DNA of 43,551 bases, filler included, from Jimgerdemannia flammicorona (taxonomy: Eukaryota): NCBI GenBank assembly GCA_003990765.1. It is 2 parts of 2 records of this genome, joined end to end, with 100 filler letters (N's around TTAATTAATTAA, not from the genome) between each part and the next. Parts side by side here need not be neighbours in the genome. Positions count along the whole stretch, not along the records: positions 1 to 21,735 come from RBNJ01001404.1; 1 more part is not named here. One strand, written 5' to 3'. Numbering within the stretch: position 1 is the first letter of the stretch; every line of letters begins with the position of its first letter. A program made the translations under genes and the position numbers. Shown in pieces: positions 1 through 43,551 of the stretch. The notes beneath the pieces are model-generated. The model had not been told where the DNA came from. It worked only from the letters and a program-made list of their open reading frames with translations, and made no database searches.

Positions 1-1242
1 AAAAAAAAAAAAAAAAAAGACATCTGATGCATACGCCCTCAAATCCCAACTGCCTTTGTGCTGTCGAACGAGTTTCTTTCCTGTTTTGAATTTTGATACG
101 ATCCTTGGCTTTCTTGGTCAGACTTTTTGCGTTTGACCCCCCAGATACAAAGATATCGTATATACTACAAGGGACCGCAAGACCGACACAGACCAGACTG
201 CCGGCAAAGAGAGCTTGAGGAGCACTACTGAAAATGATCTGTCAGATTACCGATGACAGTTATTCTCAAAAATTAACCAAAATTTCAAGCTAACGGGCAA
301 GATACGAACGATTAATTTTTGCAACATTAATACCACGGTAAAAATGTGGCCGAAGCAATGGTTTTATTCATACTATTAACCCCAAGTCACATTTTGGTTT
401 TGGCACTCTCATATACACTGAATAAAAGGTTTCAGATTCGCTCGGCAAGATTGGGAATAATCGTTCAGCGACTCGGATTTCGGCTGTTAAAATGTCTCGC
501 AAGATCTGTCTAATGGTTGGGTAGCTTCGTTCTTCAGCCAAATCCTATTCGCCAAGCAGTACTCATTATACGCTGAGAACCTCGGTGGATTAAAATCAAA
601 TTACTTACCTTCCAGTCAATTGGCACATCGTAGTGGCCATCATTCTCTACTACTTCCTCGGAGTGGCGAATCATCGTCGCATGTTCGTGCAGTGAAGGAT
701 GCCGAGGTCTCTGTGTATTGAGATGACTTGGGTTTCTTGGGAGGGCTGTTGTACGAACTCAAGAGATGTGGAAGTGGGATCCAAAACCTACGAGCCCGTT
801 GTGCGCTACCATCATTTCACAGTTTGGTAACAAGGGAAAGAAAACTTAGCTTCACAATGGTAGGCAACTACGCTCGAAAAGCTGACCTAAAAAAGAAAAT
901 AAAAAAACCAGTCTTCCAATCGTAGACAGAAACCAGAAAATGGCAAGTAACCCTACCCGCTTTATCTCCGTATCTTCGCATTGATGCACCGCCACATCGT
1001 CAGACTTCGTGGTAAGGAACGAGAAATACGGCGGGAAAAAAAAAAAAAAAAACGGTGCCAGGGATGTGAAGAGATTCGTTACGCACACCCCGCGGCGGAT
1101 TGAAATGGTACCAAGGGGTACATTTTTTTTCTGTCGCCAGCCGCAAAACGAATCACGCATAATAAACCAAACCACTGGGAACAAATGCGATTTCCACCCA
1201 GACGTTACCTATAGAATTTCTTCCACCTCCTCCCATCACCAG

Positions 1243-2519
1243 TGGCAACTTCGCCAAAGCTACCACTGCCATCAACGGTGCCCTGACGAGCACGAAAATA
1301 CAGCAGCGCATCGCCGACTCCGTCGAGATCTTCTACAACGACACTGCCCCCTGACGGGCCAATCGGTCTCTGCCGTCGAGTGGCTTCAGGATATATTCAG
1401 CCTTGACCTATCGCTTGTGCCCCGCCTGGGTGCCACTCCAATTCGCACACTCGCCGTGGCAAGGAGAAGTTTCCCGGCATGACGATCGCGTACGCGCTCA
1501 TGGAGGCGTTGGAGGAGATGGCTGAGAAGCACCTCGACCACATCAAGATCATCAAGAAAGCTGAGGTCATCAATCTCATCTAGGACGTGAACAAAGATGT
1601 CGTGGGAGTCGAGTGGATTGTCACAGGAAAGCCAGATGTGTTCAAGGAGGCCGGGCCTATTGTATTGGCTGCTGGTGGGTATGCCGTGGATTTCACCGAG
1701 CAGTCGTTGCTAAAGAGGCATAGCACTGAGCCGTGGAACCTGTATGTATACGTTCTCCCGTTTAGCAACACCTATTTTATTATTTTATTTTTTGAGCTTG
1801 TCCCGCACACAAACATCGTCCAATCAACTCTCTTCTTCCAACTACTTTCAACCCTCCCTCCACTACCAATAGTAATCACTACACATACGACGGCATTAAA
1901 GGTATCAAAATGTCCGCCACGATCGGGGCCAAGACGATCGACCTCGAGAAAGTCCAGGTTTACCCCACTGGGCTCGTTGACCCGAAGGAGCCCGACCGCG
2001 GCGTGGATGGTCTTCTTCTCCAAGAGGACAGCGACCGGTTCTGCGACGAACTCGGGCACCACGACTACAAGTTCCCATCCGCCTCGTGCCGCCTCCGGCA
2101 AGATTGAGTGGCACTGCAAGCATTACACTGGTAGGGGACTGACGAGGAGATTCGAGATGTGGAGGACCTCGCGAAGGAGATGGGAATTGGCTTGAAAAGA
2201 CGTCTGCGGAAACAGGTCGAATCCCTGGGGAAAGAATTTTCCAGAACGTCTCCGACGACTTTTATGTTGCGTTGATGCAGCCCGTGTTGCACTATACTAT
2301 GGTACTTTCTTTAAATAAAGTGTTTTGCCTTTACTTTATATTTCTTTCTCGACTACCACATTCCTTAACCCAGCCCACCCTCTACTTCAATAGGGTGGCG
2401 TTGAATCACCCCCGACCCCGAGATTAACTCAACTTCCGGCAAGCTTACCCCCGGCCTTTTCGCTGCCGGTCTCTTCGCTGCAGGTTAGATGTGCGGCGGC
2501 GTGCCGTCTTGGTGGCTCT
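1243..2519 (+). pseudogene. OSM1: Soluble fumarate reductase (FRD1/OSM1-like flavoprotein) pseudogene fragment
   Basis: Family motifs recovered across frames: GNFAKATTAINGA, AVEWLQDIFSLDLSLVPRLG, HRGKEKFPGMTIAYALME, GPIVLAAGGYAVDF, GIKMSATIGAKTIDLEKVQVYPTGLVDPKEPD, PVLHYTMGG, PGLFAAG, GGV..RLGGS. It has frameshifts, in-frame stops (TAG at 1580 and 2486) and short deletions of conserved segments. Intron remnants are present (GTATGT at 1742; GTACTT...TAG at about 2302-2392). The N-terminal GxGxxG exon is absent and the 3' end is cut by a LINE poly(A) tail. Confidence 0.9.
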
Positions 2520-5500
2520 TTTTTTTTTTTTTTTATAGTCTCCCTCATTTATTCCCCTTCTATGTTCTCATCATACCAAATAGCCCCATCCCCCAACCCC
2601 ACAGGGGGTCCCCCCCCCTCCCACCCAGCCACCCTGACCCTCCTCTCACTCTGCATACAAATTGTCTCCACAAGTCCACAATGAAGACCCCCTCAGGGTC
2701 CTCACCCCTGCTACTACCCATTCAGAAGCTCCAATACCAATCACTCTCACTTTGCTACTCATACCCCAAGCACTAACTTCTGACTATCCTCAAACACATA
2801 TAGCTAATGTCCAGCAAGCCTAATCCAAACAGCTAGAGCCCACCATCAACTACTTATTATCTACCTCTCTCACCAGTTGTATCTGAAGGGCAGCTCACCA
2901 CCCCTCTGTCTCCTACTCAGGCAGATATACTTCAAGCTGGTCTTTAATTATCTTCCAAAAGTTCCCCAAGATCTCATACTCTCTCAGCTAATATTCTGGA
3001 GTCTGTATCACACCTCTCTTCTACTTAATATTATAGTACTCTTTGTAATCAAAGTCACTCTCTTCTATCAGATATTCTGACTGAAAGTTCAATATTACAT
3101 TTCTCTGCAGAAGTCTCTACTACACTATCCAGAACTTGGACAGAAGCTATCATATCACTATCTTACTCTATAACTAGATACTAGCCCAGTTCTAGCTTTT
3201 ACTAATTTCTACTTCCTACTAGACCTCTAGTCAAAGATCTCACCCTTGCTCTCAAAGATACTCTATATCATTCTCAAGACTAAAATTATCCACTAAGATA
3301 CCTTCTAATAGAAGATAGTCTCACCTCTATATCTGGAATCTTTAGTTCTTCTCATCCTTCTTACTCTACTAATAGATACTAATATGATAGATCTCATCAA
3401 CTACCCTCTACCAGGAGCCTCTATACTATATCTTATAGCTCCTCTCAAGTGCTGCCAAAGAGAGTAAGTTGTCAGACTTCTTCTTAGAGAAAAACTGTAC
3501 CCCCTATACTCTTTATATAAGAGAGACTCACTCTTATCCCTTCAGCTCACTGATTTGCTTTAGCCACTATATCCTTATATAATATAAGTACTTAGTAAAG
3601 TCTACAAGATCAAGACTCTCCTGATTCACCAGTATTATCAATATCTTTCAATTAATCTGACTATATCAATTAGCTCAAATCTAAGATCTAACTATCTTTA
3701 GAAGTTTTTTCACTATCTATACTGGAAAGTCTAGATAATATCTCAGATATTATATATAGTCTAAGTAATCAATAAATGTTCAGCACTATCATCTTCTCTG
3801 CTAAGGAGATATATTGGCCACTCTAGTCTAAAAGCACTCTCTCTTACTCTGTCAGTCTCTGCTCCTATTATATATTAGATAGTAGAGAACTATATACTGA
3901 GAAATAGATCTCTAGATACTAAATTGTCTCTTCTACTAGAACAATTATTTCTATTATATTCCTACTTACTATTTCATCTTCTAGTATTAAAGTCTCACAC
4001 TTATACCAGTTAAGCTTGGCCTCTGAGCACTTTTCATATTATTCTACTATTTTCTTTAATACTACTATATCTATATATCACTGAGTCTAGTCTAACTACT
4101 ATATTATCTGTAAAGGTACCAATTTTTTAATTCATACTAAGAATATTCAACCCTCTCTATCTTATACTAGATCCTATCCAACAGAGGCTTAAGAGAGAGA
4201 GTATAGAGAATGAGTGATAGTAGATCACTATATAATATCTCTCTATTAAGGGAAAATAAAACCTCTCTATAACTATTAACCAAGATAGCTATTTAATTCT
4301 CTCCAACAGACTAACTAGTAACTATCAAAAGCTTAGTAGAATCTCAATATACTTTAGTACTCTATCTAGTCAAATTTATTGAACCTTATTATATATTTTC
4401 TCTTAGTCTAGAAATATTAGACAACTATTTACTCCAGTAGCTCTCACTTTCTCAATAATATTATAGACCTATGCTATTCTATCTTAAATTAAATAGCCAC
4501 TAATAAAGCTCCTTTATTCCTTCCCTAGTATCTGTTGAGTCATTCTCTATAGTCTAGTCATTAAAATCTTTATGACCAGTTTATAATCTACATCCAAAAG
4601 TATTATTAGTTTCCAGTTCTTTTACTTCTCTTTTCTTCTCTTATTCTTATACAATAAGATCACAAGCCCCAGCTACTATCCTCCAATTTAAGTTCCAGAG
4701 CTAATAACTTCATCACATATCTATATTATTTCCTTCAAGACCACCTCTTCATTCATCATTCTCTTCTAGAAATTCCAGAGCAAACTATCCTTCCCAGAGA
4801 CTATCTCAAGACTCATAGTTACCAATATCCAAAGAATCTCATCTTTTTGAACTAATACTCCAAGTCTGCTCAGGCTCTCTATTAGATCTAGATATCAGTC
4901 CTTCAGATATTGCTCAATAGTTAGTACATCCTCTCTATCCTCTTTCTTATTTTACAATAATCTCCAACACCTATTCAACTAGTCCAAGATATCTTGAGTC
5001 TCTATCATTAGCTCCTCTGACTCATTCAAAACTCTATCTTACTACTATCTCACTCTTCTTATCTGAAGAAGTTATGACAAAAACTTTGTACTGTTCTTTC
5101 TTCTCCAATTCCTACTATTACAGCTAGTCTGTCATACTTTTTACCTATAAGTCCTTCTTCTGTCTCAGTAGACCTTACAGTTCCTCTATCTTAAGTCTGA
5201 TATACTGAACTCTCCAATCAATCATCTTCTCATCCTCTAGTAATCTAGCCCATTTTATCAATAGCCTCTCCAATTGGCATAAGGTCTACTATATATGACC
5301 TCTCTACTAAGTATACTTCACTCTTTCAGTCTTTTTCCAGAAGTATTAAGTATTAGATTTTAACTGATATCAATAGCAAGACATGCTCCTCACTAATTAA
5401 GAACTCTAGAATTAATGTCTACTATTTAGATATTTTACAAAGAGAGCTCATTCAATAAGAAAGTATTTAGATACCAATGTCCAGACCTCTCCCTACTTTT

Positions 5501-8050
5501 TTCAAACCTTCCACAACTCAGAAGGCCCTAGTAATCAGATCATAAATACTATACTGTTACTAATAATTCTCAGACATTACTCTTTTACATAATACTCAGC
5601 AGTCAGAATCCAGTTAATCCATAATTTAAGCCCAGTTATTCAGTATATATAAATCTGATAATCTCCTCACTCTTATCAGCCTATATCCACCAGAGAGCTA
5701 AGTCTTTCAATCTTCTTCCAGCCCTTTATTTCTCTGCTTTTTTCAGATAGCTCTCTCTTATCATTAGTCCTATCTAATCTTCTATATTGAAGTCTCTATC
5801 TAGATAGTCAATCTCTATCTCTACTAGAGTATCTGAATCCTATAATCTATATATCTACTCTAAGTAGACTCTCTTTTCTACTGGACAGTAGTAAGACTCA
5901 ACAACTACTAGATCTCAGTCTGGTCTCTACTATATCCCCCACACCACTCTACCCCCCTAGTGTTTAATATCTCCAATATCTCTCTTTCTCTTTTAAACTA
6001 GAATACCCACTCTACTCTATCACACAGTCACACTCCTCTATTCTCTTGTTCAGTCCAGTATATCTAAGTCTTTATTATATTTCATATTCTATAATAAGAA
6101 TAGATTAGTATCCAGCCCCCTCAGCCAGTAGAATATATTTTAATATCATACTGCCTCTCATAATTCATTGATATTCAGAGAGAAAATCCTAGTTATACTA
6201 TTCATATTAAATAATATTTATAGAAGAATATCCTATTCTACAATTCTATACTCATCTTATTACTAGCCACATCTAAGTTCTTCTCAGCCACAAGTTCAGC
6301 CTCCTCTTCCTACTGAGCATTCAGAGCTACTAATATCTTCTGATAGTCCTCTTTATTCTGAATCTCTATGAATATCCTGTATTCCTCATACACTATCTAC
6401 TATTTTACCAATCCCTTTCTTGAATCTCACAGATAAACTATATACTTATTAGTAATCTTCAACAATACTATCTCTCTGTTCCAGTCAATCTCATACTCCC
6501 CCTTCTATAGTAGAGCTATTATCAACTCATCACACAACTTATATACTATCTCTTCACCACACATTACATCTTTCTAATACATATGCCATATTGATAACTT
6601 AGAAGTTAACTTTCTCTAACTCATCTACTATAATATTTATCAGTGTCTTCTATAACTACTTCATGTCTCTGATCATTTTTCTCCCTAAGTCCAATTCAAT
6701 TCCTAACCTCTTCTGAATACTGCTCTCACTAACTCATCTCAGTCCTCCTCTGACATATTCTGTAACTTGTCCCCTCTCCCTACTGCTGGAACTCTCTACT
6801 GGACTAGAGCTCCTTTATCTATCTCTATATCTTCAGCCACCATGCTTCATCTATAAGCTATATCTCTCTCCAAGTCTCTCTCACCCTCTCTTCTATCTAG
6901 GCACTAGCTCTCAACCCAGCACCTCAGCATTCTCTACTACTTTTAAGCTCTCTTCTAAACTTGCCAATAAATCTCTCTGTCACTGCCTTCTCTATACCTT
7001 CTCTCAAGCAGTCTGATCTAGATACACTCTCTTACCATTGATAATCTCTACTACTGTCTTAGTCTCATACTCCTTTCAAGCTAGTCAACTCCTCTCTACT
7101 GCTCTCATCAAATCCTCTAGTATCTCTAGCAAGTTCTTCTCCTCCTCAGATGACTTCTTTACTCTTGATATCTTATACTCTACTGAACTCTACTTCAGTA
7201 CTACTAGCTAATCTCTTCCTTTTTCTATATTTTTCTTTTCAGCTAGCTATATCTAGATATCGACAGAACTCTATACTCTCTCAGACCTAGAACTCAATAT
7301 CTATGATATCTTCATACTTCTTGATCACATTGATAATCAGCTTTCTAGCCTCCTTCTTCTTCACTATAGGAACATTGATAACTATTAGCTAAACTACCTA
7401 TAGGTTCTAGTATAGATATCTTACCATAAGCACTATTATATTTCTAATTACTATCACTACTAGCATCAGATTCTCTTTCTCAAATTTTACCTCAACTCTC
7501 TCAAGTCTCTTTAGAAACTTCACTGAGATCACTCCTTTTACCTTCTGAGTCAGTAGCCCCAAAACCAGCTTAGCTATAATAGCTAAGCTCTAGAAGTACA
7601 AAGTGATGATAAATTTAGATATTAATTTTTTAAGTAATGACACCACTATTAGACCTATTATACTATTAGCCAAGTCTCTAGATATCATACCACCCTTCAG
7701 TCCAGACTTTCCATCAGCTATCATATCTGAATTTTTTTTATCAGATTAGTAGTCACCCTCTTATCAGCAGTCTCTTTCTCTCCCCCAGCTATTACTCTCT
7801 CAGTCTTGTCACTACTACTATTCTGAGCAGCTCTTCTAGGCCCTATAGCTCTTACCTTCTCCTTGCCTCTCTGTAGTCAGCCATCTAAGCCTACTGATTG
7901 ATCTTCAGCCTTGATCTTATCAGCAAAACTCACTCTCTCAGTCTCTTATCTACCAGTATGTCCTCTAACTACTGTCAATCTCACATTTACCTGAATGAGA
8001 GCCCAATAGACTCCCCCTTAAGCTCTGGCTCCTCTCCATATACTGCCAGT
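2519..8050 (-). mobile_element. Near full-length L1/Tx1-like non-LTR retrotransposon (LINE), inactivated by transition hypermutation
   Basis: Poly(T) at 2519-2534 is the minus-strand poly(A) tail. Minus-strand translation gives decayed RT motifs: KNWKLIILLDVDYKLV (=NWRPITLLNVDYK, ~4575-4620), IFLD*EKIYNKV (=LDQEKAYDRV, ~4381-4415), SDLLSLILY (=GDPLSPILY, ~4200-4230) and FTDN (=FADD, ~4103-4114). APE endonuclease relics are RDFN (=GDFN, ~5787-5798), WINWI (=RIDRI, ~5608-5622) and SDY (=SDH, ~5531-5540). A C-terminal CCHC-type zinc relic lies at ~2960-3050 and an ORF1-like region at ~6300-8000. The 5' boundary is approximate. Confidence 0.9.
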
Positions 8051-9360
8051 TAAATATACTAGAGCTATCTTATATAGTATACATACTCCTCAGATTACTC
8101 ATTAATTGCTATATTACTATATATTATCTTTTTTCCAAAAAACTATATTGAAGTATTGCTAAAAGTTTATATAATTCAAATTATGTTACTGTCTTAGTAG
8201 CTTCTCTCTTCTAGGCTATATTTATTTTGAGCATATTGTTAGTATACTATCTATTCTTATACTTAGTAAATAGTATGTAAGTTGTATGAGAGATATCACT
8301 TCCCATATCTCCAGCAATAATATATATTAATATTACTATTGAGATCTCATTTAACTACCAAGAGTAGCTTTCTCATTATTGCTACTAACCAAATCTATGT
8401 AAGCTAATATATATATCCTCTATCAATATACTCATCACTACTACTAAGCCTAAGAAGAAGTAAACTAGAGAGAGTATTCTCTTATAGATATTGCTAAGTA
8501 TAATACTGAGAGTGATTTCTGAGTTAGAGTAAATGAGAGAGTATAGATATAATAAAAATCTTATCTCTGGTTTCTTTTATATACTGGAAGAGATATAAGT
8601 AATATATTTAGAAGATATTTTGCTTTTAGTAATAGTTCTGATAATTATGTATAGTAGGCTAGATGGTTTTATTACTAATATCCCCTCCTCTACAGAGAAA
8701 TCCAATATACTCTATATATTAGAAATAGTCAATAAGAATATACTCTTAGCTATCTATTATTAATATCTTTAAGTAAAATAGCTAAACATTATATATATTT
8801 TATTTGTCTTTTTTGCTTTTGTACTTATAATTAAATATAGTAGATATTCACATATACTCAATATATCTTAATAAATCAAAATAAAATAAATACTAATGAA
8901 TTATATAATAATAAATAAACTATTGAGCATTGGGAATTTTTAGATAGTATGTAATAGAGTATATATTTAGGAATACTTATTATTATATAAATAGTTATAC
9001 AAATAGATTGAAATAATTAATAAAGCTAAAAGCCAAAGTTCATTAAGCTAAGTCTAGAGAAAGATAATCTAAGCATATTATTTGTCATCAGGTTATGAGA
9101 ATCTCCTTCTGAGATATAGTTCAATGTATTGAGTTTTTCTTTTATAAGCAGTCTTTATATAACTTTTACAAAAACTCAGATTTGATCTATTAGATAATAG
9201 TTATATAATATATAATATAATATAATGAAGAACTGTTATAAAAACAGTAATCTGAATAGTCTTCAAGAGGAGTTGATCTCTAGTATACTAATAATGTTCA
9301 ACAATATTATCTAGAGCTACTGGTATATAAACTCCAACTAGTGACCCAGTATTTTTGAAG
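8051..9360. repeat. Unassigned AT-rich, CpG-free hypermutated repeat relic
   Basis: Same TpA-rich, CpG-void composition as the flanking TE relics. No decodable protein motif was found by eye. Confidence 0.45.
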
Positions 9361-10150
9361 TTTTTTTATAGTCTCTTAGACTCTTATATTTATTATTAAT
9401 CCAATTTATACCATTAAAATATACAATATTCCAATCTCTTATCCAATCTCTCTGAGAGTCCCCCTTCTCTCCCCTCTACCCTCTTATATCAAAACATTAT
9501 CTGACTATTAATAACTACAATCCTCCTACTACTTTTTATACAAATCTCCTCTATTAGACAGTAATAGCAATTACTCTGGGGATTTTACCCTCTCTATCTG
9601 CTAGATATAATATCTACTACTATCTTCTTCTACTATATCATCCTTTCCTCCAACTCTATCTATCTCTCTTTCTCAAATATAAACAGCCAATATCCAGCTA
9701 ACCTCATCTATACCACCAAAGTCTATCTAATAGTGAGTTACTCATTATTAATATATCTTATCAATTATAATTTCAAATATTCCCAATAACTCTTCTCTCT
9801 ACTCTCTTATTCCTTTACTTCCAAATAACTACTAATCTATACCCAGAAGTCTCTAAGGACATCATACTCATTCAGCTAATATTTTAGAATTTGTATAAAA
9901 TCTCCCACCTATTCTATATTATAATACTCTTTATAATTAAAATTTCTACCATCAACTAAATGATCTGAGTAAAAGGTTAATATAATATTCCTTCTCAGCA
10001 AATATCACCACACTACTTAGAACTTTAGAGAAAGCCACTACTATACCTTAGTACTCTATAACTAGATATTAGTTCAGTCTCACTCTTTGTCAATATCAAC
10101 TAACTACTAGCTAACTAGCTATAGATCCTGGCCCATTCTCTAGTACTCTT
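9361..10150 (-). mobile_element. 5'-truncated copy of a related L1/Tx1-like LINE (3' end only)
   Basis: Starts with the same (T)n-ATAGTCTC terminus as the element at 2519. The minus strand reads FNYKEYYNIE*VGDFIQILKY*LNEYDVLRDFW, homologous to FDYKEYYNIK*KRGVIQTPEY*LREYEILGNFW at ~2960-3055 (decayed C-x2-C...H-x4-C zinc motif). Confidence 0.75.
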
Positions 10151-10623
10151 GAAGTATACTATTAATTGTTAAAATATATAGCTAGTTTAGTCAGCATTCT
10201 TTTTATCTTACAATCAAGTATGGAAGATTAAATTTTAAGAATACTTATAATTATATCTGTATTATTTTTACTTAAGATATAGTTATTGATTAAGAAAAGA
10301 TAGATTACTCATCAATAAGAGCTAGAATCTACAAATAGTAGTAATATTTCAAATTTATAGATAGAGAGTATATATAATACTGAGAGTAAATTTTACACAT
10401 ATTCACAACTCAAACAAATCACCAAAGAGTACTTATAATTAATACTTATTACTCTTATATAATAACTAAATTAAAATAAATAGTATCAAAGATTATAAAG
10501 TTATTCTTATATATAATATTTATATTTGTTAATTAGCAGACTTTATATTCTTAACTTATATTACATAATTAGACTAAAGACAATATAGTAGACTTTTATA
10601 TTATTAATATACTATAGCTATAT

Positions 10624-11485
10624 TATAATATACTAGCTCAAAGAGATAAATTACAAGATTTAGATAATTATATAGATTGGTTTAAGCCCCTAGTTACTTT
10701 GTTAAAAAGTAATAAAATGTAATAAAATATTTAGTTAGATCTATAAATCTTTCTTTTAGAAAGTAGATGAGTTCTCTTGTTTGTATAATATAGATAATTT
10801 CAGTAGGTTTCTTAATAGATACAGATTTTGTATAATATGGAAAATTAGTGAATTTCTTAAATAGGTAAAGTTCATCACTCATCTGATAAATAGACCAAAA
10901 TATAATAGACTTCTCTTCTGGCTTAATCTGGTAAGTAGACCAAAATCAGCAGACTTCTTTATATTAAAAAGTAAACTAGAGTGAGAAAGAGAATAAAACT
11001 TATAATCTTCTTAATAGTGATTTTAGAGTAGATATTTCTCCTAAGTATTATAATTTTTTTCTTAAATCAAGTAGCTCTTAAAAGATATATCCTTTGAAGT
11101 ATATTATAAGTAGACTTATCTTTTTCTTTTTCTTTAACTTCTCAGACTAAGGTTTATTTACTTAAATATCTAAAGTATTTTATATAAGTATAGTTACTAT
11201 CTAATTACTATCTGAGTAATTATAAAATATATAATAAGACTAATTTAGAGAAGATATAACTACTTATTCTCTTAGAGAATAGATATTTCTTATGAAATAG
11301 ATATTTTGTATAGAATGAGTATTCTATATAGAATAAGTAGTCTTTTGGAGATTAGTATACTCTTAATTGATATATCTGATTATTTATATAAATTAGTAGT
11401 ATATATAGTAACTATATATATATAATGACTATACTAAGTATTCTTTATATATTATTTAGCTATACTATAGTATTCACATATTACA
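10624..11485 (-). repeat. 3' LTR of the gypsy-like element
   Basis: Termini T(A)TAATA...TATTACA (TG mutated to TA). Aligns with 17742-18878. Contains a minus-strand TATA-like box (~11178-11188) and an AATAAA-like signal (~11153-11160). Confidence 0.7.
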
Positions 11486-12906
11486 TTAGTCTCTACTAAA
11501 GGATAGTCTATCTTATCTTAAACTATTCTTTAGTCATCATTCTAATATTTATAAATATCTTCTATATCTATATCTATACTATCTTCTTTTTTTATATCTA
11601 AATTACTCTAAACTCTAATATTGAGATATAGTTATCTGACTCTAGTAGAGAGATCTTGAAGATAATTAATATATCTTTTTCCAGTAGAGTCTAAGGCTTC
11701 TATAAAGTTGATAGTATCTTCTACTCATCTTTAATAGATTATATATCTAATAAAAGCTAGAATATTATCTCCTAGATCATAGATCTTAAGAGTCTTTTTT
11801 TTTTTAGTCTTCTGGCTTACTCTTTTTAAATCTTAGCTCTATTATCTCTCTTCTTAAGTATATATACTATAATATCTTAGCTGAGATAGATCTTCTATAC
11901 TGGTAGATTTAGCAGTTTAGATGTTTTCTATGGTAGTAGTAACTTATTACTTTGAAGTACTATTTTCTATTATTAACTTCTCACTATCCTGAAAATTAGT
12001 AGTTATCTTTATTATAAGTAACTGAAAGACTAACTAGAGGATATACATACTTCTGTATAGATAAGTATTCTCTTCTATAAAACTATTTTATCAGTATTGT
12101 AGTTATTTCTTAAAATATAGTTGACTGTATAACTATAACTAAAGATACTATATAAATCTAAGTATCTCTATCTTTGCTATTAATCTAATTAGTAACATTG
12201 ATAGTAATAATTCTGAGAAGAGTGGAAGACTACTTGATACTGATATCTTCCTAACTAAAAGACTCTTTTTTAGTTTATTTCTTATCTTAAAATAATGACT
12301 ACTATACTTAATTCTGCTTTAGTATTCTAGAGTTTATTATCTCTATCTTTTGATAATATTCAATATAGGTCATTCTAAGAGACTAGCTCAGAGAGTTCTT
12401 CTGATTCAGAGATTTCTTCATCTACTATTTCTTATTTCCAAATTGCTTATACTTCTATAGCTTTAGTTCTGAAATCAGATGTTTTTTCATAAGTAATTAT
12501 ATTTCTTCTTTTTCTTTTTATATTCTAGATATATTATATCAAGAGAGTTCCTTATTATAATAATTTTAGAAGAGTGTTTGAAATATTTATACCTTTTGAG
12601 ATAGATGGAACATTCTTTAGCTTATTTAGTAATAGTATTAATTATAATATAGTATTTTATATCTATATATTATCTTCTTATCTATCATTTATTAGATTGA
12701 TTCATAGATGAAGCCTAGAGTTATTGTTATTTTCAGATTCTTCTTTTTTATCTGTAGTAGATTCTCTACTACTGATATACTCTTTCTAAATAATAATCTT
12801 CTTCTTTTTCTTAGATTACTTATAACTAGTTACTTTAATTTAGTACTTCTTTTCTCTATAGTCAAATTTGAGTATCTGTTGATCAATATTAATGACTATA
12901 TTCACT

Positions 12907-15297
12907 CACAGCTCCTTTCTCTGCTATCTTACCAGTCACAAGATTTGGTAGGTGACCTTCTGAGTTTCCTTTCCCCTATTATTACCCCCTCTACCTCAGG
13001 TTGGTTTGCTGTACCTACAGGGGCATAGTGGAAGGAGGGCAATAATGATGAGTTGCCCCTTTATTGGTATCAGATTGGTGCTTCCTCCACTTTTTTACAG
13101 ATTCTGATGTCTTTAGCTGTATCTGGGGTATATCTGTTTTGGTGTGGCACCTTCTTTCTTTTGCCATTACTAATAAGGAGTTGTCTTGGTATATCTCAGG
13201 CTACGTAGAGAGTCAGCTGACCTTGGGCATCAAGTGCTCAGTATAGGTTACCTGCAGATCCTTGGTACCTATGGTGGGGCTCTCTGGCTTTGGCAAGCTT
13301 CCTGATGAGTGCAGTTCTGGTATAGGTGACTGCTTTTTGGGTGTTGTCAGGATGAGAGGAGAGATGGCCATCACAGATAGGAGGAAGAGTAATAATGTTG
13401 AACCAGTAGGGTGCCAGGCTGGGGGCAGTTATCGGGGCTGGGGCAGGTGCTGTTTCAGTGAGGCCTTTTGATTGATACGGTATAGTCAGCTTCTTTCTCC
13501 ACTACCTTACTGGTCACAAGGTTTGGTAGGCGACCTTCCGAGTCCCCTTTCCCCTAATATTACCCCCTCTACCTCAGGTTGGTTTGCTGTGCCTGTAGGG
13601 GCATAGTGGGAGGAGGACAATGGTGATGAGTTGCCCCTTTATCAGTGTCAGATCGGTGCTTCCTCTACTTTTTCGTGGATTCTGGTACCTTCAGCTGTGT
13701 CTGGGGTGTACCCGTTTTGGTGTGGCACCTTCTTCCTTTTGCCATCACCAACAAGGAGTTGTCTCGGTGTATCTTGGGCTATGTAGGGAGTTGGTCGACC
13801 TTGGGCATCAAGTGCTCAGTGTAGGTTACCTGCAGGTTCTCGGTGCCTGTGGTGGGGCTCTCTGGCTTTGGCGAGCTTCCCAGCGAGCGTGGTTCTGGCG
13901 TAGGTGACTGCTTTTCGGGTGTTGTTGAGATGGGAGGGGAATGGCCATTACAGATAGGTAGAAGGGCGATTACGGTGAACCAGTAGGGTATCAGGCTGGG
14001 GGCAGTCGTCGGGGCTGGGGCAGGTGCTGCTTCGGTGGGGCCTTTTGATTGATGCGACATGGTTAGATGGTAGGTATCACTATCAGCTTCTTTTGGCGGT
14101 CAGCAGGGTTGAGCCCCAGTCATCAGGGGGGGTCAGGAGGCCTGAGGCTACCCATTTCAGGCATCTTGGCTGCACTCAACTGGAACCAGGAGCTGATATG
14201 GCAATGTGATTGAGGCCTGCAGGCTTGAGTAGTGGGGATTGGGAGTTTCCTCCTGCCTCACATGTAAGTCCTTTACTCACCTCAACTGGGAGAACCAGGC
14301 CCTACCTACTGTGTTGTGCTTTGATGAGGGTTTTTTATTTGCCTGTCATTCTCTTTGGGGTAGCAGGGGCTATTCTATTCAGCTCGGGTGTGGCCTTGTA
14401 CATACATTGGGTTCTCAGGCATGCACTTTCAGTCATTGGCATATGGTTGGATTTTCCCTGGTGGTAGGGAGAGCATGGTGCGCAGAATGAGGTGCAGGCT
14501 TATCAGCTCTGCTACGCCTGGCATGGTTGAGCTGCTGGACAATAGCTAGCCTAGGTTAATGGGGGGGCAGTACTTGGTGGATGGTGGGGGAGGGTTTTGG
14601 CCTATATAGTCTAGATTTCCTTCCAATAAAAATCCATGGGACATGAGTCTATTAAATAAAAAAAAAGATACAGTATGGTTAGGTGGTAGGTGTCACTCTC
14701 AGCTTCTTTTGGCAGATTGGTGGGTTAGGCCCCAGTTATCAGGAGGGATCGGAGGGCCCAAGGCTACCCATTTCCGGCATCTTAGCTGCACTTAACTAGA
14801 ACTAGAAGCTGATATGGCAACATGATCAAGGCCTACAGGCTTGAGTAGTGGGGTATTGGAGGTCTCCTCCCACCTCACATATAAGTTCTTTACTCATCTT
14901 GACTAGGAGAACCAGGCCCTACCCACTGTGTTGTACTTTGATGAGAGTTTTTCTTTACCTGTCATTCTCTTTGGGGTGGCAGGGGCTATTCTATTCAGCT
15001 CAGGCATGACCTTGTATATACATTGGGTTCTCAGGCATGCGCTTTCAGTCATTGGCATATGGTTGAGTTTCCCCTGGTGGTAGGGAAAGTATGGTGTACA
15101 GAATGAGATGTGGGCCGATATTGGCCTTGCTGTGCCTGGTATGGTCGAGCTGCTGAACAATAGCTAACCTAGGTTACTGGGAGAGCAGTGCTTGGTGGGC
15201 GGTGGGGGAGGGTTTTGGCCTATATAGTCTAGGTTCCCTTCCAATAAAAATCTGTGAGACATTGAGTCTATTAAAAAAAAAAAAAAAAAAAAAAAAA
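12907..15297 (+). mobile_element. Poly(A)-tailed retroposed insertion with tandem A-A-B(polyA)-B(polyA) architecture and 13-bp TSD
   Basis: TSD GACTATATTCACT at 12894-12906 and 15298-15310. A25 tail at 15273-15297 is preceded by AATAAA at 15243. Unit A copies lie at ~12909-13486 and ~13487-14083. Unit B copies lie at ~14051-14666 (internal short poly(A) 14654-14666) and 14667-15297. Confidence 0.9.
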
Positions 15298-17741
15298 GAC
15301 TATATTCACTTTTATCTAGTTGATACCAAGAATCATATTATAGATAATAGCTTTAGTAATAATAGTCTTTAAGATAGAGAACTGGATATATCTGAGAGTG
15401 ATAGTGGTATTTTATACTTCTTTTAAAAGCTGAATTTAGACTCTATCTATTACTGTAATACCAAGATTAGATAGTTCATCAATAGATCACTAAAAGGTAT
15501 TTAGAAATTTTTTTATAATGATATAGATAGCTATTCCTATATTGATGAGAATTTTTATCTTTTAACCTTCAATATCTCTATACAGATATACATATACAGA
15601 TATATCTTCTACAATCTAAATAATAGTTGGTATAGATTCTTATTATAAGATTGAGACTTAGCCTATACTGGATCTAGTAGTTCTTAATAGTTTATTTTAA
15701 ACTTCAGTAGACATCAATTATAAGAATTATAGAAGATAGATATCTATCTTAGCTTCTTGAATCTTCTTCTATACTTTATTATAAATATCTTAGAATATAG
15801 TCTTTGAGATATATTTCTTAAGTTTTAAAGTTACAAGCTCTTATATATTCTTCTTATTTCATTTCTTTATCTTTAGATCTAAATAGTGGTTTATCTATTT
15901 TAGAGATAAAGGATAAAGAAGAATGAGAAAGTATATCAACCTTATCTTTGACTTCTTTTTTTTAAATAATTCTTCTTTTCAATTTTCTAACTAATCTGTC
16001 TTTATTTATCTTTCTTTTCTCTACAGAGTGGACTGTTTTTTTAAAGATAATCTTGATAAAGTATAGATCTATATTACTATAGTCTTTATTGTTATTTTTC
16101 TTATAATATTCTATAGAGTAGATTTTGCTCTTCTTATACTAAGTTATATTCTTTTGATTTGATAGTTTTAGGTCTCTTTAATTATCTTTTCTATTATTAT
16201 ATTCTATAGTATAGTATTCAAACTATCTATAGTTATAATATTAAACTTAAGTCTTATTATAAGGTGGATAGCTTCTGTCTTCTCAAAATGAGTAACTTTT
16301 GTTTTTTTTTTTTAGAATAGATAGCTTCTGTCATCTTGAAAAGAGTAGTTCTGATTTCTTTGAGATATATATACATATATATAGTCTCTATTGTTTTATA
16401 GATAGTACTAATTTTTATATATAGTGAGTTTTTAATTTGTCTGATCAATTGGTTTAGTTTAGAGCTAAGGCTTTAGATTTTATTTTTGTTTTTCTTCTAT
16501 TTCTTTATAGATTTCTTCTCTTTTGGGTTTTCTTAAAGAATCTTTTAAAGAGTCTTAATTAAGAAGTTGACTTTATTTTCTTTCTTATTGTTATTTCAGA
16601 TAGTTTCTAAAAGTATTTTTAAGCTATATCTACTTATTTATCAGACCTCTTGATATCAAGAATATAGATATACTGATCAATATTAAGAGAGATTTTATTT
16701 ATAAAGATTATTAGATCAATGATGTCTTAATTGATAGTACTAAATTTAGCAATATGTATTCTTTTCTGAATTCTTATAAAGAATGCTCATAGGGATTTTT
16801 TAAGATTTATCTTCATACTTATAATAGATTTTTGTACTTTATAATAAGTTTTAATTTCTATATATTTCTTAATAAACTAGTGAGAGATGACTTTATATAA
16901 TCTATATAATAGTTTATAGTAGCTAGAACTTATTCTAGATTAGAGTTTGGATTGTTTGATATTCTGATAAAAATTTCTTTAACTGGTTCTCTTAGCTATA
17001 TCTTAAAGACTATGATTTATCTTCTAGATGAGAGATCTTTTAGTACTATAATTTCTTTAATAGTATCTAGAAATTTCCTTAGATCTTCTTTTGAGTATTC
17101 TGTAAATATAGATAGTAGTACTATTATTTCATTATTACTGTTTTTGATTTTTTTTTTTTTTCAGTTTCTGAGTCTGAGTTTATTTCTGAAGTTAAACTAA
17201 ACTTAGTTGAGTTGTTGGAAGTTGAGAAATATATACTTAGTCTCTGAAATATAGGTGTAATTCTTAGTATTCTTGAAGATACTAGGCTTGGAGAGTTTGT
17301 TGGTCTAGGTAGAGATAAAATAGGTGAGACTTTTAAGAGAAATTAGAATTGAGTAATATAGTCTTCAAGTTTTTATATAAGTTTATCAAAATTTCAGACA
17401 GAGATATATATATTATCTGATTGATCAGGCTGGATCAGATCTTTTAGTAGTAAGTCTGTAGATATTTCAGATATATTTATCAGGTATAGACTTAGTGATC
17501 AGACTAATAGTAGTGGAGAATTCTATATAGTGCTGACTTTCTCTTAGGATCCTTCTGATAGTAGATAGTTGGTTAGTCTTAAGGTAATTACTTCTCTTCT
17601 TATCCAAATACTACTAATAATTCATTTTTTTATAGTAGTAAAGATTAGTACTATATCAAATATATTCAGTTATTTGTTAAATTCTGTAAACTGAAAGTTT
17701 ATATAGATTTCAAAATCTTCTCAGTTGAGTTCTCAAATATA

Positions 17742-18878
17742 TGTAATTTACTAACTCAATATAAGTAAATTATAAAGTTTGAATAATTATATAGATTGGC
17801 TTAAGCCCTCAGTTACTTTGTTAAAAAGTAATAAAATATTCAGTTAGTTTTATTGATATTTCTTTTAGAAAGTAGTATAAGTTCACTTATTTATATAATA
17901 TAGTAAATTGGTAGATTTCTTAAATAGACAAAGTTTATTACTCAAACTTAGTAGTAAATATATAGACTTTATCTGGCAAATAGACCAAAATATAGCAGAT
18001 ATCTTTTCTATTAATCTGATAAGTAGACCAAAATTAGCAGACTTCTTTATATCAGAAAGTAGACTAGAGTAAAAAAGAGAATAAAGCTCACAATCTTCTT
18101 AATAGTGGCTTTAGAGCAGATATTTCTCTTAAGTATTATATATAATCCTTTTCTTAGATCAAGTGACTCTTAGCAGATATATCTCTCAAAGTATAATATA
18201 GGTAGACTTTGTAATAAATCATTATATGTACCTATAAGTTACTGGAAATTCCAATGAAAATTCCAATAGAAATTTCTATAGAAATTTCTATAGAATTTCT
18301 GACTAGCAGTTATAGTTATCCAGAATAATATAAATATCCTCTATACTGAGTATATTGTAACCTCAGCTCTACTTTCTCTAAATATAAAAATAAGTAATAT
18401 TCTTATCACAGAACCCTCAGACCCAACTTGTTAACAATTTCAAGTCTGATTAACTTGAGATAATTTCATCAGTATAAGAATCTAAAAGTAATACCTAGAC
18501 TCTACTATAACAGACAATTGGAACTCAAGAACTCAGAACTTAGAGCTGATAGTCATTATTGATTATTCACAATATATTAATTCTATCAGTGTATAGTTTT
18601 ATTACAGACTTGTCTTTTGCTTTTTCTTTGACTTTTTGGACTGAGGTTTATTCACTTGAATCTTTGAGATATTTTATATAAGTATGGTTGCTATCTGGTT
18701 GCTATCTGGATAATTATAGAATATACAGTAAGACTAGTTTAAAGAAGGTATGACCACTTGTTCTCTTGGAGAATAGGTGTTCCTGTATAGAACAAGTGTT
18801 CCACATAGAACAAGTAGTCCTTTAGAGATCAGCATACCCCAATTTGGTATATCTGGTTATTTATATAAATTGGTGGTG
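17742..18878 (-). repeat. 5' LTR of the gypsy-like element (interrupted by a solo LTR, truncated at ~18878)
   Basis: Begins TGTAAT at 17742 and aligns to 10624-11400. The adjacent minus-strand TGAGAACTCAACTGAGA (17719-17735) converts by transitions only to TGGGGGCTCGACCGGGA, a tRNA-Pro-like primer-binding site (inference). Confidence 0.7.
18210..18606. mobile_element. Solo LTR (397 bp) with 5-bp TSD
   Basis: TGTAATAAA...TTTATTACA inverted termini. TSD GACTT at 18205-18209 and 18607-18611. The paralogous LTR has a single GACTT at 11113-11117 (empty site). Confidence 0.9.
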
Positions 18879-19116
18879 ACGAGGGGATACACGCCCTATC
18901 GGAGTCTCTGAAGCAGAACGCGACCTTGATCAAGCTGCGTCTCCAAAGTATGTCAGAACTGTATGTGCAGCTGCGTGATGGAATAAAGCTCGCGATCTGT
19001 ATGTGTTCGCTCATAGCCTGTTCATTTTAAAGCAAATGGCATTGGCGGCGAGGGGGCACGCGCCCTAGCCGAGCCTCTGAAGCAGAACACGACCTTGACC
19101 GAGCTGTTTCTCTTCT
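18876..19116 (+). pseudogene. Two exons of a ribonuclease-inhibitor/NLRC3-like leucine-rich-repeat gene (fragment)
   Basis: GDEGIHALSESLKQNATLIKLRLQ (exon ends 18947) and NGIGGEGARALAEPLKQNTTLTELFLF (exon 19033-19116, exactly 84 nt = one 28-aa repeat). Both are followed by near-identical introns starting GTATGTCAGAACTG. The 5' part is replaced by LTR sequence. Confidence 0.85.
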
Positions 19117-19300
19117 GTATGTCAGAACTGTGTGAAGCATTGTGTGCAGCTGCATGATGGAATAATGCTCACTCTTCGGACGATCTGTGTTCATACGTAA
19201 ATAGTCCGTAAGAGCAGGTGACGAATGCAGACTTTATTTGGCGGGTCGCATGGTGTGGCTTTCACTTGCTTAAATAGTCCGTGACGGGTATAGACTTTAT

Positions 19301-20095
19301 TTGGGAGCTGAGTTCCTATGCGCTGTGATGGTGGTGCAGCCGAGGAGATACTCGAGTGCCAGAAGCCACTTGAAGCACAACGCTGGTCACTTGGTAAACA
19401 TAGTCAAGATTCAAAATACGTGTACAAATATCCCAATGATTTTTATATGTGTCTCCTGTCCACGCACCTTTCCAATATCCAACGAACAGACCGTCGGAAT
19501 CGTCAAGGATATTGTCAACGACAAACATACCCAGGTCTCGCTTCGGGCTTTCTCGAATGAGCACAGCCGGGTACCACATTCCGAGCATCTGTGAAACGAC
19601 GCAAGACCACCTTCGCTTTGCCCAGCAACTCAATCACGCCCATCATTATGACCGCCGCCAGCACGGGCTTATCGCTTCCTCCAGCGACGCCAGGCGTTCG
19701 GCCTCAAATCCACTGCAAAAGGCGGCGTCTCCGACGCCTACCTCTTCGGCTGCCGTCATATTGACCAGGACTTTATCTATCGCGATAAGCTGGAGGTTTT
19801 TGTCGAGGACGGAACCTTGACCGCACTTCACACCGCCTTTTAGCGCCATAGCAATGACCCCAAGCGATACGTTCAGCGCTACATCATGGCCAATGCATCC
19901 CACGTGTGGAATCTCATCACCGAGCATAAGGCTATTATTTACATCTGTGGCGCTGGGTACATGTCCAAGGATGTGCGCAGGGCGTTTGAATTGATGGCGC
20001 AGAGTTTTGGCGGGTACGCATGTGATGACCAAGCGAGTGAATATATCCATAAATTGGCAGAGCAGGGCCAGTACAACAAGGATGTTTTGGGGTAA
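19301..20095 (+). pseudogene. FAD/NADPH-binding C-terminal part of a diflavin reductase, most like the reductase half of CYP102/CYP505-type P450-reductase fusions; pseudogene
   Basis: Motifs EFL...QPRRYS, YPGLASGFL, FALPSNSITPIIMTAASTGLS..FLQRR, YLFGCRHIDQDFIYRDKL, LHTAF*RHSNDPKRYVQ, IYICGAGYMSKDV and GQYNKDVLG. It has frameshifts, stops (TGA 19558, TAG 19841), a probable intron at ~19394-19489, and no FMN or heme domain upstream. Confidence 0.88.
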
Positions 20096-20515
20096 TGGCT
20101 TTAGATAGTTGCCCGTATACATGTAGGCAATGCATAAGACATTTCTACACATTATATAAACACGTCACACATACATGGCATACTTGGCGTACACGTACAT
20201 AAATGTATGGCGCATGTACGGTACAAGGATTTTGTGATGCATTATGCCTTTCTTTTAATACATATAAGTTCACCGTTTTTTGGAATCGTAACCTACAATC
20301 AATTGATCTTTAACATATCTCATGGGCCTCCGTTGCGTCATGAAAAGGAGGAGATGGGTGTGTGTAATGCCACATCATGCGTTATACATACATATCCGGG
20401 GAGTGGCAGTGTTTTAACGTTGGAGATGTAAAGTTCGATTGTGGAAGTTACATGTGGACGAGAAGTCGGGTATTATCTTTTAATTAACGTCCCTTACATT
20501 ACTCTCAGGCCCACT

Positions 20516-20648
20516 GAAGCTTGACGCGTGGACATGTGATCAATATTACACCCCACCAAAGCTTGATGCTTGGACAGGTGATCAAGTATTACACCGCTTC
20601 CTTGCTCGTCGAAGCTTGGCGTGTGGACAGGTGATCAAGTGTTACACT
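20516..20648. repeat. Three imperfect ~38-bp direct repeats
   Basis: Consensus AAGCTTGRYGyGTGGACAGGTGATCAAGTATTACAC at 20516-20552, 20558-20595 and 20611-20648, separated by 5- and 15-nt spacers. Confidence 0.85.
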
Positions 20649-21065
20649 CTTGTGCTGTGGCATTTCGTCCATCCATCCATATTCCGAATCATTGCTCAGA
20701 CACCACGGATGTGTGAAGACGGATTATAACGCGGGCTGCAAGGCTGCTGGGACTGAAGCTACATGCCAAAGGGTGTTTGGCAAAAACGCCTCACGCAACA
20801 GGGTAAGACTGCCGCCTCGGTTATCACATGGATATAGCATTTAACAAGAACCAAGACTGTGATTGTGCTGTCATTGATTGCATCGCTGTATGGGCACAGC
20901 AGTGGTGGGTACACGCCAACGCATTGGGTACGCATATATAAACCACCTTTCCCCACAACACTTCTTCCCAACAAACCAATTCTCCAACCAGACCTTCCTC
21001 AAACCAATCCTTCCAAACCTCCAACACACCCAGACCTTCTCATTCCTCATCACTCTCCATCAAAA

Positions 21066-21735
21066 ATGAGCCAAAACATAAATGTTTTGATGCCAGAAAA
21101 GAAATCCGCGTGGCGGATTTCCCGAACGTTTTCTTTGAGGTCAATCACGCCCCCATAAGTCTAGACCCCCGCGATCTCGTATGTGTTCACGGTTTGTCTG
21201 TTTACCTGTTTACCTGCCCGCTATACTTCCTCCAACCACTTTATCTTTCTGCCACTCCAACTTTAGGAGACCATCGTCACGTGGACGACCGGTAATCAAA
21301 TCGTGGTGGACAGAAGCTCGGGCACACCGGTGTTCCGGAGGAGGCGGTATGTTTTTTCTTCTTTTTTCCGCTTCAATTCATCACAACCCTCTTGCATCAT
21401 CCGATATTGCTGCAAAATATTTTGCTGATACCTTAACTCTTGTCCATTTTTTCAGGGAAGCCGCTGACATCGCGGCCAGCTTGGCGGCCCTCAGTCTGGG
21501 CGAAGGCAGCGGCCCCCCTCCTCCTCCCGGCCCCATTCCCGCCCCTGCTCCGGGCCCCGTCCCGGCCCCCGGCCCTGCTCCCGTCCCCGCCCGGGCCCCG
21601 CCCTTGCACGCGCCCGCGCTCTCGCCCGCGTCTGCGACTTCGTTCTTCGGCCCGCGCCCCAGCTTTGGACCCCGGCCCGGCCCCCCCTGCTCATGGCCGC
21701 GGCCGCGGCCGCGTCCCCGTTCCTGCCCCGGCCCC
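21066..21735 (+). CDS. Spliced hypothetical protein with Pro/Ala/Gly-rich C-terminal region, partial (runs off contig end); needs one +1 nt correction near 21084-21088
   Basis: AAAAATG start. Canonical introns 21179-21266 (GTATGT..TTTAG) and 21347-21455 (GTATGT..GCTGAT..TTCAG) splice in frame to FDARKEIRVADFPNVFFEVNHAPISLDPRDL/ETIVTWTTGNQIVVDRSSGTPVFRRRR/EAADIAASLAALSLGEGSGPPPPPGP... The ATG is out of frame by one base in a T-run. Confidence 0.55.
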
Positions 21736-21835
21736 NNNNNNNNNNNNNNNNNNNNNNNNNNNNNNNNNNNNNNNNNNNNTTAATTAATTAANNNNNNNNN
21801 NNNNNNNNNNNNNNNNNNNNNNNNNNNNNNNNNNN
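21736..21835. other. Artificial contig-joining spacer
   Basis: N44 + TTAATTAATTAA (21780-21791; stop codons in all six frames) + N44. Confidence 0.97.
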
Positions 21836-21948
21836 TTTTTTGATTGCAACGAACAACTCCCAACGGTACACTTCTCTCCATTCATCTATGAGGTACCATC
21901 GAAAGCCATTTCTCAGGCCTGGCTTCCCATGCCTCCCCAAGCTTTGTC

Positions 21949-22101
21949 TCACCACATATGGCGGTTTGCCCAATGCGCCACTAGCTCCTCCTCTGTCAGG
22001 AAGTAGTGCCGGCATGCTGGGCATTGTGGCAGGTTCGGCATGTGGATCCAGACTTTGATGATCCGACGTGGGGCCGGGGCCGGGCGAGGGTTGTCAGACA
22101 T
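21949..22101 (-). CDS. 50-aa single C2H2 zinc-finger microprotein
   Basis: MSDNPRPAPAPRRIIKVWIHMPNLPQCPACRHYFLTEEELVAHWANRHMW contains C-x2-C-x3-F-x5-L-x2-H-x4-H. The ATG sits in an AAAAAAAATG context, with a CATAAATA TATA-like box ~95 nt upstream (22197-22204). Confidence 0.6.
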   Translation of the reverse strand: MSDNPRPAPAPRRIIKVWIHMPNLPQCPACRHYFLTEEELVAHWANRHMW

Positions 22102-24488: not shown

Positions 24489-24870
24489 AGGCCAGAGACA
24501 CGCGTTATGTGCGTTCACAAGAATATTGAGCTCCGTTTATTGCGTTTATATTGCTTGTATGCATGAATGATTGGTTAACGACAATAAATCAAACCTGTTT
24601 TTCATGAATGCGTGAGATTTGGCTAGAGTCGATTTTACCCGGTGTTTTTGTCTGTTGTCCTTTTGCTGTACAGTGGAGAAGACTTGAGGTGATGTCTTTG
24701 GAGAACGTGACATGATAAAGTCAAACATCACCATGCTTACTTTGGCGTACTTGCCTGCGTGAGCTCCAGTTGTTGATCCATGATGGCGATGAAAACCGCT
24801 CAATCACAAGGCCAAAGATTTCCGGATATTCAGCCGGGTAGCTTATAGCACCCCCTTGCTGGATCCGCAC

Positions 24871-24982
24871 ATTACCTCTTGCCATCTGTTCCTGGAAAAT
24901 TTCGTATATTAATTACCTCTTGCCATCTGTTCCTGAAAAATCGCGTACATTAACTCTTGCCATCCATTTGTTCCTGGAAAAT
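24871..24982. repeat. ~41-bp tandem repeat, about 2.7 copies
   Basis: ATTACCTCTTGCCATCTGTTCCTGGAAAAT... at 24871 and 24912, with a diverged third copy from ~24949. Confidence 0.85.
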
Positions 24983-34039: not shown

Positions 34040-34076
<37 letters not shown>

Positions 34077-41400: not shown

Positions 41401-41579
41401 CTTGATAGCAGTAGATAGTTATATCTTACCTTATTAAGAAACTTTACAAAAATCTGAAAACTAGTTATAACTAGTTATATAAATCCAAAATAAATATTAA
41501 AGAACTAGTCAATTATCTAGATCTCTCTATAGTAGAAAATATAGATATAGAGACTCAAATTAATCTAGAAGAGATAATT

Positions 41580-43522: not shown

Positions 43523-43551
<29 letters not shown>

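Follow-up and report, generated by a model that had tools for sequence, protein, structure and literature searches.

Age-graded C-to-T loss confined to transposons, with a DIM-2-like context spectrum, in the early-diverging fungus Jimgerdemannia flammicorona

The window analysed here is a stretch of 43,551 nucleotides from Jimgerdemannia flammicorona (Endogonales, Mucoromycota), in which CpG-free transposon islands lie among CpG-rich gene regions. It was taken from a fragmented assembly (GCA_003990765.1; 231 Mb in 35,354 contigs) and joins two contigs, C1404 on the left and C1405 on the right, by an artificial linker, so the islands at 36.5 and 40.2 kb are not neighbours of the first one. An earlier sequence-only reading of this DNA had proposed repeat-induced point mutation (RIP)-like transition hypermutation in an organism that might be an early-diverging, Mucoromycota-like fungus. 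The lineage was corroborated by the last exon of an SHB17-like gene on the second contig, which matches a J. flammicorona protein at 100% identity, and the species match of a methyltransferase exon is likewise J. flammicorona.

The old transposon blocks of the window contain 1 CpG against about 343 expected from base content. By the same measure, 1 CpG was observed versus 210 expected at 2536–12908, 0 versus 56 at 15299–18878, 0 versus 25 at 36530–38100, and 0 versus 52 at 40200–43551, whereas the gene regions stand at normal levels (149 versus 146 at 1–2516, 176 versus 185 at 18879–21735, and 836 versus 809 at 21836–36529). Sliding windows gave observed/expected (o/e) CpG ratios near 0 at 2535–12900 and 15300–18880, 0.1–0.4 between these blocks, and about 1 outside. 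The last CpG before the first island lies at 2505 and the first one after it at 18880, and island borders in general were resolved to within approximately 2–200 bp. The sharp borders and the confinement to transposons described in the sequence-only reading were thus confirmed, as was the near-absence of CpG; the loss it placed at 2535–18880 and in the later islands is not uniform, however, given that 12909–15298 keeps 32 CpG of 141 expected because two younger nested insertions lie there. The islands are also poor in CpA and CpC, and rich in CpT (1.5–2.1-fold) and TpA. Nearly all CpG and about 40% of the other cytosines of the old transposons have been lost by C-to-T change, leaving the neighbouring genes untouched.

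Assignment of the features (Table 1) showed that the first island is built from two old repeat families, an unassigned remnant, and two nested insertions. The reverse transcriptase (RT) domain of the long interspersed nuclear element (LINE) family A matched Pfam RVT_1 at E 2e-7 when stops were read as X, and the element has 57 genome matches besides itself, at 65–75% identity. Family B, with 6 CpG in 67,010 columns of 31 alignments, is interrupted by a 1.17-kb poly-A element flanked by a 13-bp target-site duplication (12894–12906 and 15298–15310). Inserted in turn into this element is a younger copy that shares 88–92% identity with other copies and whose 1,147 scored sites show 83 C>T/G>A and no change of any other kind; its own 13-bp target-site duplication (13474 and 14667) has two ends that differ by two G>A. 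Between one arm pair of the inverted-arm element there are 26 transitions and 3 transversions.

Table 1. Features of the window (positions along the whole stretch)
Positions	Strand	Feature	Remarks
2519–2534	-	LINE family A poly-A tail (T run on +), left island border	Last CpG at 2505
2535–8100	-	Decayed family A LINE with a single CpG over 5.6 kb	RT domain at 4340–4633
8101–10500	.	AT-rich remnant without CpG	Few of the fetched loci reach here
10500–12906	-	Repeat family B sequence (retroelement by eye)	Second 5'-end-like copy and continuation of the element cut at 15298
12909–13479	+	Older 1.17-kb poly-A non-LTR (long terminal repeat) element, 5' part	3/40 CpG pairs intact
13487–14666	+	Full-length younger copy of the 1.17-kb poly-A element, inserted within the older one	23/72 CpG pairs intact
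14675–15297	+	Older 1.17-kb copy, 3' part and poly-A tail	2/31 CpG pairs intact
15298–18878	-	Decayed element of repeat family B, without CpG	Right border at 18878, where the family match stops
18879–19215	+	Two LRR-like (leucine-rich repeat) exon units (by eye), large tandem-repeat gene family, CpG-rich control	
19310–20200	+	Diflavin-reductase-like gene fragment, CpG-rich control	Weak cysJ-type match; dispersed copy 88% identical
21736–21835	.	Artificial contig join (N run, TTAATTAATTAA, N run)	C1404 precedes, C1405 follows
23462–24329	+	SHB17-like histidine phosphatase gene	Last exon 100% identical to the J. flammicorona protein, 83% to Endogone sp.
36529–38106	.	Non-autonomous element with long inverted arms, multi-copy, 0 CpG	Right end may reach ~25 bp further
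40200–43551	.	Island without CpG; Gag-like and protease-like remnants recognised by eye only	Oldest 1.17-kb copy at 43015–43511

Nesting orders the 1.17-kb copies by age, and damage increases with the age of insertion. From the inner through the outer to the old copy, intact CpG pairs fall from 23/72 to 5/71 and 0/35, CpA loss rises from 13/146 to 27/146 and 38/58, and transversions go from 0/1,147 to 10/1,145 and 21/490; the oldest copy has also lost 38/105 CpC and 14/63 CpT. The element itself (13487–14666; further copies L066–L094) appears SINE-like (short interspersed nuclear element), being non-autonomous and poly-A-tailed, with its 5' end fixed and its target sites duplicated, and it has inserted into itself here. 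Contigs of less-mutated 1.17-kb copies occurred in a sequencing run examined for positions 1–20000, and were not counted as expression evidence.

To obtain a mutation spectrum, up to 30 best-scoring copies per family were aligned and variants were counted column by column (LINE A, 29 non-self loci in 57 matches; RT family, 30 in 150; 1.17-kb element, 29 in 46; family B, 29 in 103); since the best-scoring copies were taken, these samples lean towards the best-preserved ones. In all four families, C>T loss was directional and affected both strands, falling off in the order CpG >> CpA > CpC >> CpT. In the young RT family, labelled Ty3-like from domain length only, C>T amounted to 238/1,980 at CpG (12.0%), 368/10,459 at CpA (3.5%), 211/8,226 at CpC (2.6%), and 121/9,129 at CpT (1.3%), compared with 365/33,044 for T>C. 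The 1.17-kb element gave 1,177/4,256 (27.7%), 274/4,362 (6.3%), 243/7,659 (3.2%), and 24/4,307 (0.56%), respectively, with T>C at 42/13,585 and transversions at 74/34,169, which corresponds to a saturation-corrected excess over T>C of 116-fold, 20-fold, 9.5-fold, and 1.7-fold. Among the older families, the CG state is absent from the common states of LINE A, where 49–55% of CpA, 37–42% of CpC, and 17–22% of CpT were lost, and is 0 in family B, where the losses reach about 60%, 50%, and 24%. The loss of CpA per transversion was approximately 21, 32, and 35–41 across ages, and so stays within one order of magnitude. The transposon-confined C>T loss is real, strong, and genome-wide.

Transitions dominate throughout, as had been read from the window: 1,760 against 74 transversions in the 1.17-kb family, and a transition/transversion ratio near 4 in old copies. 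The claim that nearly every broken motif goes back to C>T or G>A holds for 41 of 54 in-frame stops (three LINE frame segments, compared with other copies) and not for the remainder. Likewise, reading frames are largely preserved to the extent that transitions outnumber gap openings about 12-fold (23,400 versus 1,922 in 117,147 aligned columns, some loci overlapping), while LINE ORF2 (open reading frame 2) does shift frame by eye.

Part of this pattern could also stem from elements that are intrinsically AT-rich and CpG-poor, or from artefacts of sequencing or damage, given that even young RT copies have CpG o/e ratios of only 0.2–0.38, their source elements having been depleted beforehand. Copy differences, however, are directional (1,718 C>T/G>A against 42 T>C/A>G in the 1.17-kb family), and genes on the same contig are unaffected, which refutes composition or artefact as the main cause and leaves it a very slim chance.

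Flanking bases modulate the loss. In the 1.17-kb element, CpG loss depends on the 5' base (ACG 0.45, GCG 0.29, CCG 0.25, TCG 0.18) more weakly than on the 3' base, and the young RT family agrees (TCG 0.085 versus ACG 0.23); A comes first and T last at CpG, and mostly also at CpA. The base at +2 alters loss as well in both families tested, CAC being the top CpA context and CCT/CCC exceeding CCA/CCG.

Strand symmetry bears on whether an AID/APOBEC-like deaminase edited retroelement complementary DNA (cDNA) before integration. Such editing would fit the retroelement nature of most affected elements and the C>T/G>A character of the changes. It is largely refuted by cytosine loss being equal on both strands of a copy: individual LINE A copies have lost about 31–49% of C-class and 28–47% of G-class positions (transversions near 2%), and the per-copy strand ratio of losses is 0.56–1.55 in 29 copies. 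A family-wide minus-strand excess at CpG (657 versus 469) is due in part to more ACG sites on that strand. In addition, the load increases after insertion, a target-site duplication and the inverted-arm element are affected as well, and the selectivity lies mainly in the 3' base; we therefore consider cDNA editing highly improbable. Adjacent hits fell on the same strand at the chance rate (832/1,628 against 855 expected, and 14,517/24,233 against 14,591 expected).

Canonical RIP, known from Neurospora crassa and other Pezizomycotina, depends on RID and is episodic, introducing dense and often single-strand mutation per round. A true homology-triggered premeiotic RIP, here CpG-first and operating through an undetected RID-like or a DIM-2-only pathway, would be in keeping with a composite RIP index of 0.04 to 0.34 in the islands, as opposed to -0.33 to -0.61 in gene regions, with borders that match repeat ends, and with the weakness of our RID search. 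Duplicated genes argue otherwise. LRR-like exon-intron arrays of the family that adjoins the first island, 94–97% identical over 0.8–2.7 kb, retain CpG with transitions about equal to transversions (in one example, 50 versus 58 with 173 shared CpG), selection on LRR genes being a caveat to this sparing; these arrays (18879–19215; L099–L124) have units of approximately 178 bp with 427 matches in 40 scored candidates and are CpG-rich. The duplicate of the reductase-like fragment, 88% identical, is likewise untouched (45 shared CpG, 18 transitions, 11 transversions). Conversely, the 30 fetched RT copies are up to 97–98% identical and only lightly mutated, with open frames of up to about 900 codons, while LINE copies went on mutating although the best partner found is 75% identical. 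Supplementary data of PMC12543289 list 37,472 repeat matches of at least 1 kb at 95–100% identity in a J. flammicorona assembly.

These observations suggest that homology alone does not attract mutation and that transposons are not killed immediately; the pattern is transposon-directed and age-graded, not homology-triggered. The sequence-only reading is supported in part: its RIP-like label suits the outcome, not the RIP hallmarks tested here, and what it took for a mutational defence may instead be a by-product of silencing. The canonical concentration of C:G to T:A transitions in repeats is present, and three other features tested, namely a homology trigger, CpA/CpT as the main target, and episodic single-strand bursts, failed. 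We judge true RIP to be improbable, and the pattern is best filed as methylation-coupled repeat mutation, RIP-like in outcome, not demonstrated RIP.

A candidate source of such methylation was found in three genes for large, DIM-2-like C5-methyltransferases (C8187, C3657, and C11271), about 30% identical to one another. The C8187 protein best matched PDB 9BAQ, an entry cited in the Neurospora DIM2 structure paper, with 136 bits versus 92 for DNMT1; the N-terminal exon of C11271 matched DIM2 only, and C3657 belongs to the same family by motif and tblastn, the single-exon PDB matches of the C3657 and C11271 catalytic exons being too weak for classification. Motif I, PCQ, and ENV are present in C8187 and C11271, and motif I and ENV in C3657. 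In our reading of the alignment, two aromatic residues of the RFTS H3K9me3 cage appear to correspond to tryptophans in the C8187 protein. Close relatives occur in Phycomyces, Radiomyces, Basidiobolus, and Glomeromycota, and one ascomycete match is annotated as Dim-2. A RID-like gene was not found in a weak search (few candidates scored, no RID-specific query, a fragmented assembly, and a PF00145 search that missed C11271), which returned only DIM-2-like and DNMT2-like matches; two DNMT2-like fragments were recognised by eye. A DNMT1-RFD family search gave no match, its control being equally silent, and a BAH search returned SNT2-like and ORC1-like genes by eye.

We lean towards DIM-2-type methylation of transposon chromatin, in the order CG > CA > CC >> CT, with steady conversion of 5-methylcytosine (5mC) to T as the probable explanation. 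DIM-2-type methyltransferases, probably directed by H3K9 methylation, would deposit the mark and keep transposon chromatin methylated; methylcytosines would then deaminate passively to T with poor repair, and the process would recognise transposon identity or the state of the chromatin instead of the pairing of homologous copies. The same context rank in four families of different age supports this explanation, as does its agreement with the Dim2-dependent 5mC of Zymoseptoria tritici, reported as CG > CA > CC with nearly none in CT (PMC8016269, in part). Passive conversion is further supported by the 5' preference, which resembles the ACG > CCG > GCG > TCG order of unrepaired 5mC deamination in MBD4-null human cells (PMC11564873, in part). 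The order of damage in the nested copies, the steadiness of CpA loss per transversion across ages, the absence of strand runs, the three DIM-2-like genes, and transposon methylation in Phycomyces (PMC11258239) point the same way. Changes that would generate a fresh CpG occur about 30 times less often than expected in old LINE copies (4/7,044 for T>C before G, against 1.3–2.3% elsewhere; 5/27,531 for CpG-making transversions, against 0.6–0.8%), suggesting continued removal.

Several observations weigh against the methylation and passive-conversion explanation. Part of the signal in the new-CpG test comes from misalignment and from variants predating insertion. The per-copy C>T load is uncorrelated with background changes (rho 0.03, n=29; rho 0.14, n=27; low counts), and the young family shows mild overdispersion of CpG loss (p=0.0015). 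No DNMT1-like gene for CpG maintenance was found among the few candidates scored, DNMT5 having been outside the search. The CpG excess, roughly 116-fold relative to T>C and 190-fold relative to transversions, is very large and exceeds the 10–15-fold of mammalian germlines. A TDG-like glycosylase gene fragment, identified by motif, indicates that G:T repair is not simply missing, and absent G:T repair lost its support as a cause. Finally, Dim2-linked mutation in Z. tritici takes place at CA, not CG, and its authors see it as speaking against passive deamination (accessible text of PMC8016269).

Given how large the excess is, and given the case of Zymoseptoria, the main rival is an active DIM-2-linked mutator, one we hold to be a tentative possibility. 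At least one DIM-2-like paralogue or a partner deaminase would here turn C or 5mC in transposon chromatin into T faster than chemistry would by itself, resembling the mitotic RIP-like process of Zymoseptoria, except that CpG would be struck too. An excess that extends beyond CpG, at CpA about 20-fold and at CpC about 10-fold over T>C, would suit such an enzyme, as would the inner 1.17-kb copy with its exclusively C>T/G>A changes, the triplicated DIM-2-like genes, the uncoupling of C>T load from background changes across copies, and the accessible account of the Zymoseptoria case (PMC8016269). Opposed to it are the flanking preference, which is like that of passive deamination, the lack of strand clustering of hits, the persistence of young copies with long ORFs, and a Zymoseptoria mutator that leaves CG alone. 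Endogonales might, in its strongest form, possess a RID- and homology-independent transposon mutator built on three DIM-2 paralogues, driving CpG and non-CpG C>T up to 100-fold over background, RIP-convergent outside Dikarya and missed by k-mer screens; we regard this too as doubtful.

The pattern can be compared with those of other fungi (statements tied to accession numbers follow the accessible parts of the cited sources). As in Z. tritici, C>T is confined to transposons and a DIM-2 family enzyme is present, and the methylation order of that fungus equals the mutation order seen here; there, however, CA receives over 98% of the new C>T and CG does not mutate rapidly, whereas here CpG is lost first and completely (PMC8016269). 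The process was demonstrated experimentally in that ascomycete, and in the mucoromycete Jimgerdemannia it is deduced from sequence comparison. The end state of canonical RIP is shared, in that the transposons are dead, rich in AT and TpA, laden with C>T/G>A, and sharply bordered, and the composite index is positive; the differences lie in the CpG-first order, the sparing of near-identical gene repeats, the persistence of near-identical transposons, the lack of strand-coordinated bursts, and a RID-like gene not found in the weak search. In Tuber melanosporum, Microbotryum, and the rusts, CpG is also the main transposon target and methylation plus deamination has been proposed, with a secondary CpA signature in Tuber, but Pucciniomycotina prefer TpCpG, the least affected CpG context here (PMC4352252, PMC3318451). 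Non-CpG loss reaches 40–60% here, unlike in those fungi.

Among related early-diverging fungi, Phycomyces blakesleeanus (Mucoromycota) methylates transposons in CG and CHH and encodes DIM2 (PMC11258239), and 5mC on transposons is also described for Rhizophagus irregularis, but the accessible parts of PMC11258239 and PMC8647823 report no mutational saturation in either; RIP signatures were undetected in Gigaspora or Mucoromycotina (PMC8647823). Zoophthora radicans and Entomophthorales carry a RIP-like compositional signal outside Dikarya, which differs in belonging to another phylum and in resting on a dinucleotide index without a copy-based spectrum (PMC11105155). In the available results of a kingdom-wide screen of 1,239 genomes, J. 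flammicorona and Endogone are scored 'no_rip', with 23 and 13 noncoding-enriched k-mers, respectively, and none repeat-enriched. Our literature search, which did not reach the original Endogonaceae genome paper, found no prior report of such a pattern for Jimgerdemannia or Endogonales; it also drew on the accessible parts of PMC13297926, PMC12574304, PMC7928374, PMC11315935, and 10.1101/2025.06.16.659975.

RIP-type scars have been held to be an ascomycete trait. Saturation-level transposon C>T loss with a DIM-2-like spectrum, in a lineage scored RIP-negative by published screens, bears on the question of whether DIM-2 can mutate repeats without RID or sex. Kimura distances overstate transposon ages in such genomes, and repeat-versus-noncoding screens may miss the signal where most noncoding DNA is repeat.

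Of the private changes in the LRR unit adjoining the first island, 6 are C>T/G>A and 8 are of other kinds, compared with 0 and 5 in the next unit, which is only suggestive of a leak of C>T into the adjoining unit, and an isolated insertion (L067) has flanks that are CpG-poor over 200–300 bp. CpG-rich profiles were obtained in 4/18 flanks, the true element end lying beyond the query; the weakness of these profiles is explained by most copies being embedded in other CpG-free DNA.

Minor observations concern the remaining sequence. Positions 42140–42610, between the Gag-like and protease-like remnants, hold short degenerate AT-rich tandem and inverted repeats with units of about 5 bp. At 1386–2300 (+), a fragmented fumarate-reductase/flavocytochrome-c-like sequence (weak matches) stays CpG-rich to 12 bp from the LINE tail. 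Beyond its two Endogonales matches, the SHB17-like exon resembles mostly metagenome proteins (PhoE/phosphoglycerate mutase) at 50–59% identity, among longer proteins. A TcmP-like gene at 33481–34739 (+), split by an intron-like gap, matches TIGR04474 (E 1e-35, first exon), a family curated for prokaryotes, and its horizontal transfer into Endogonales is possible.

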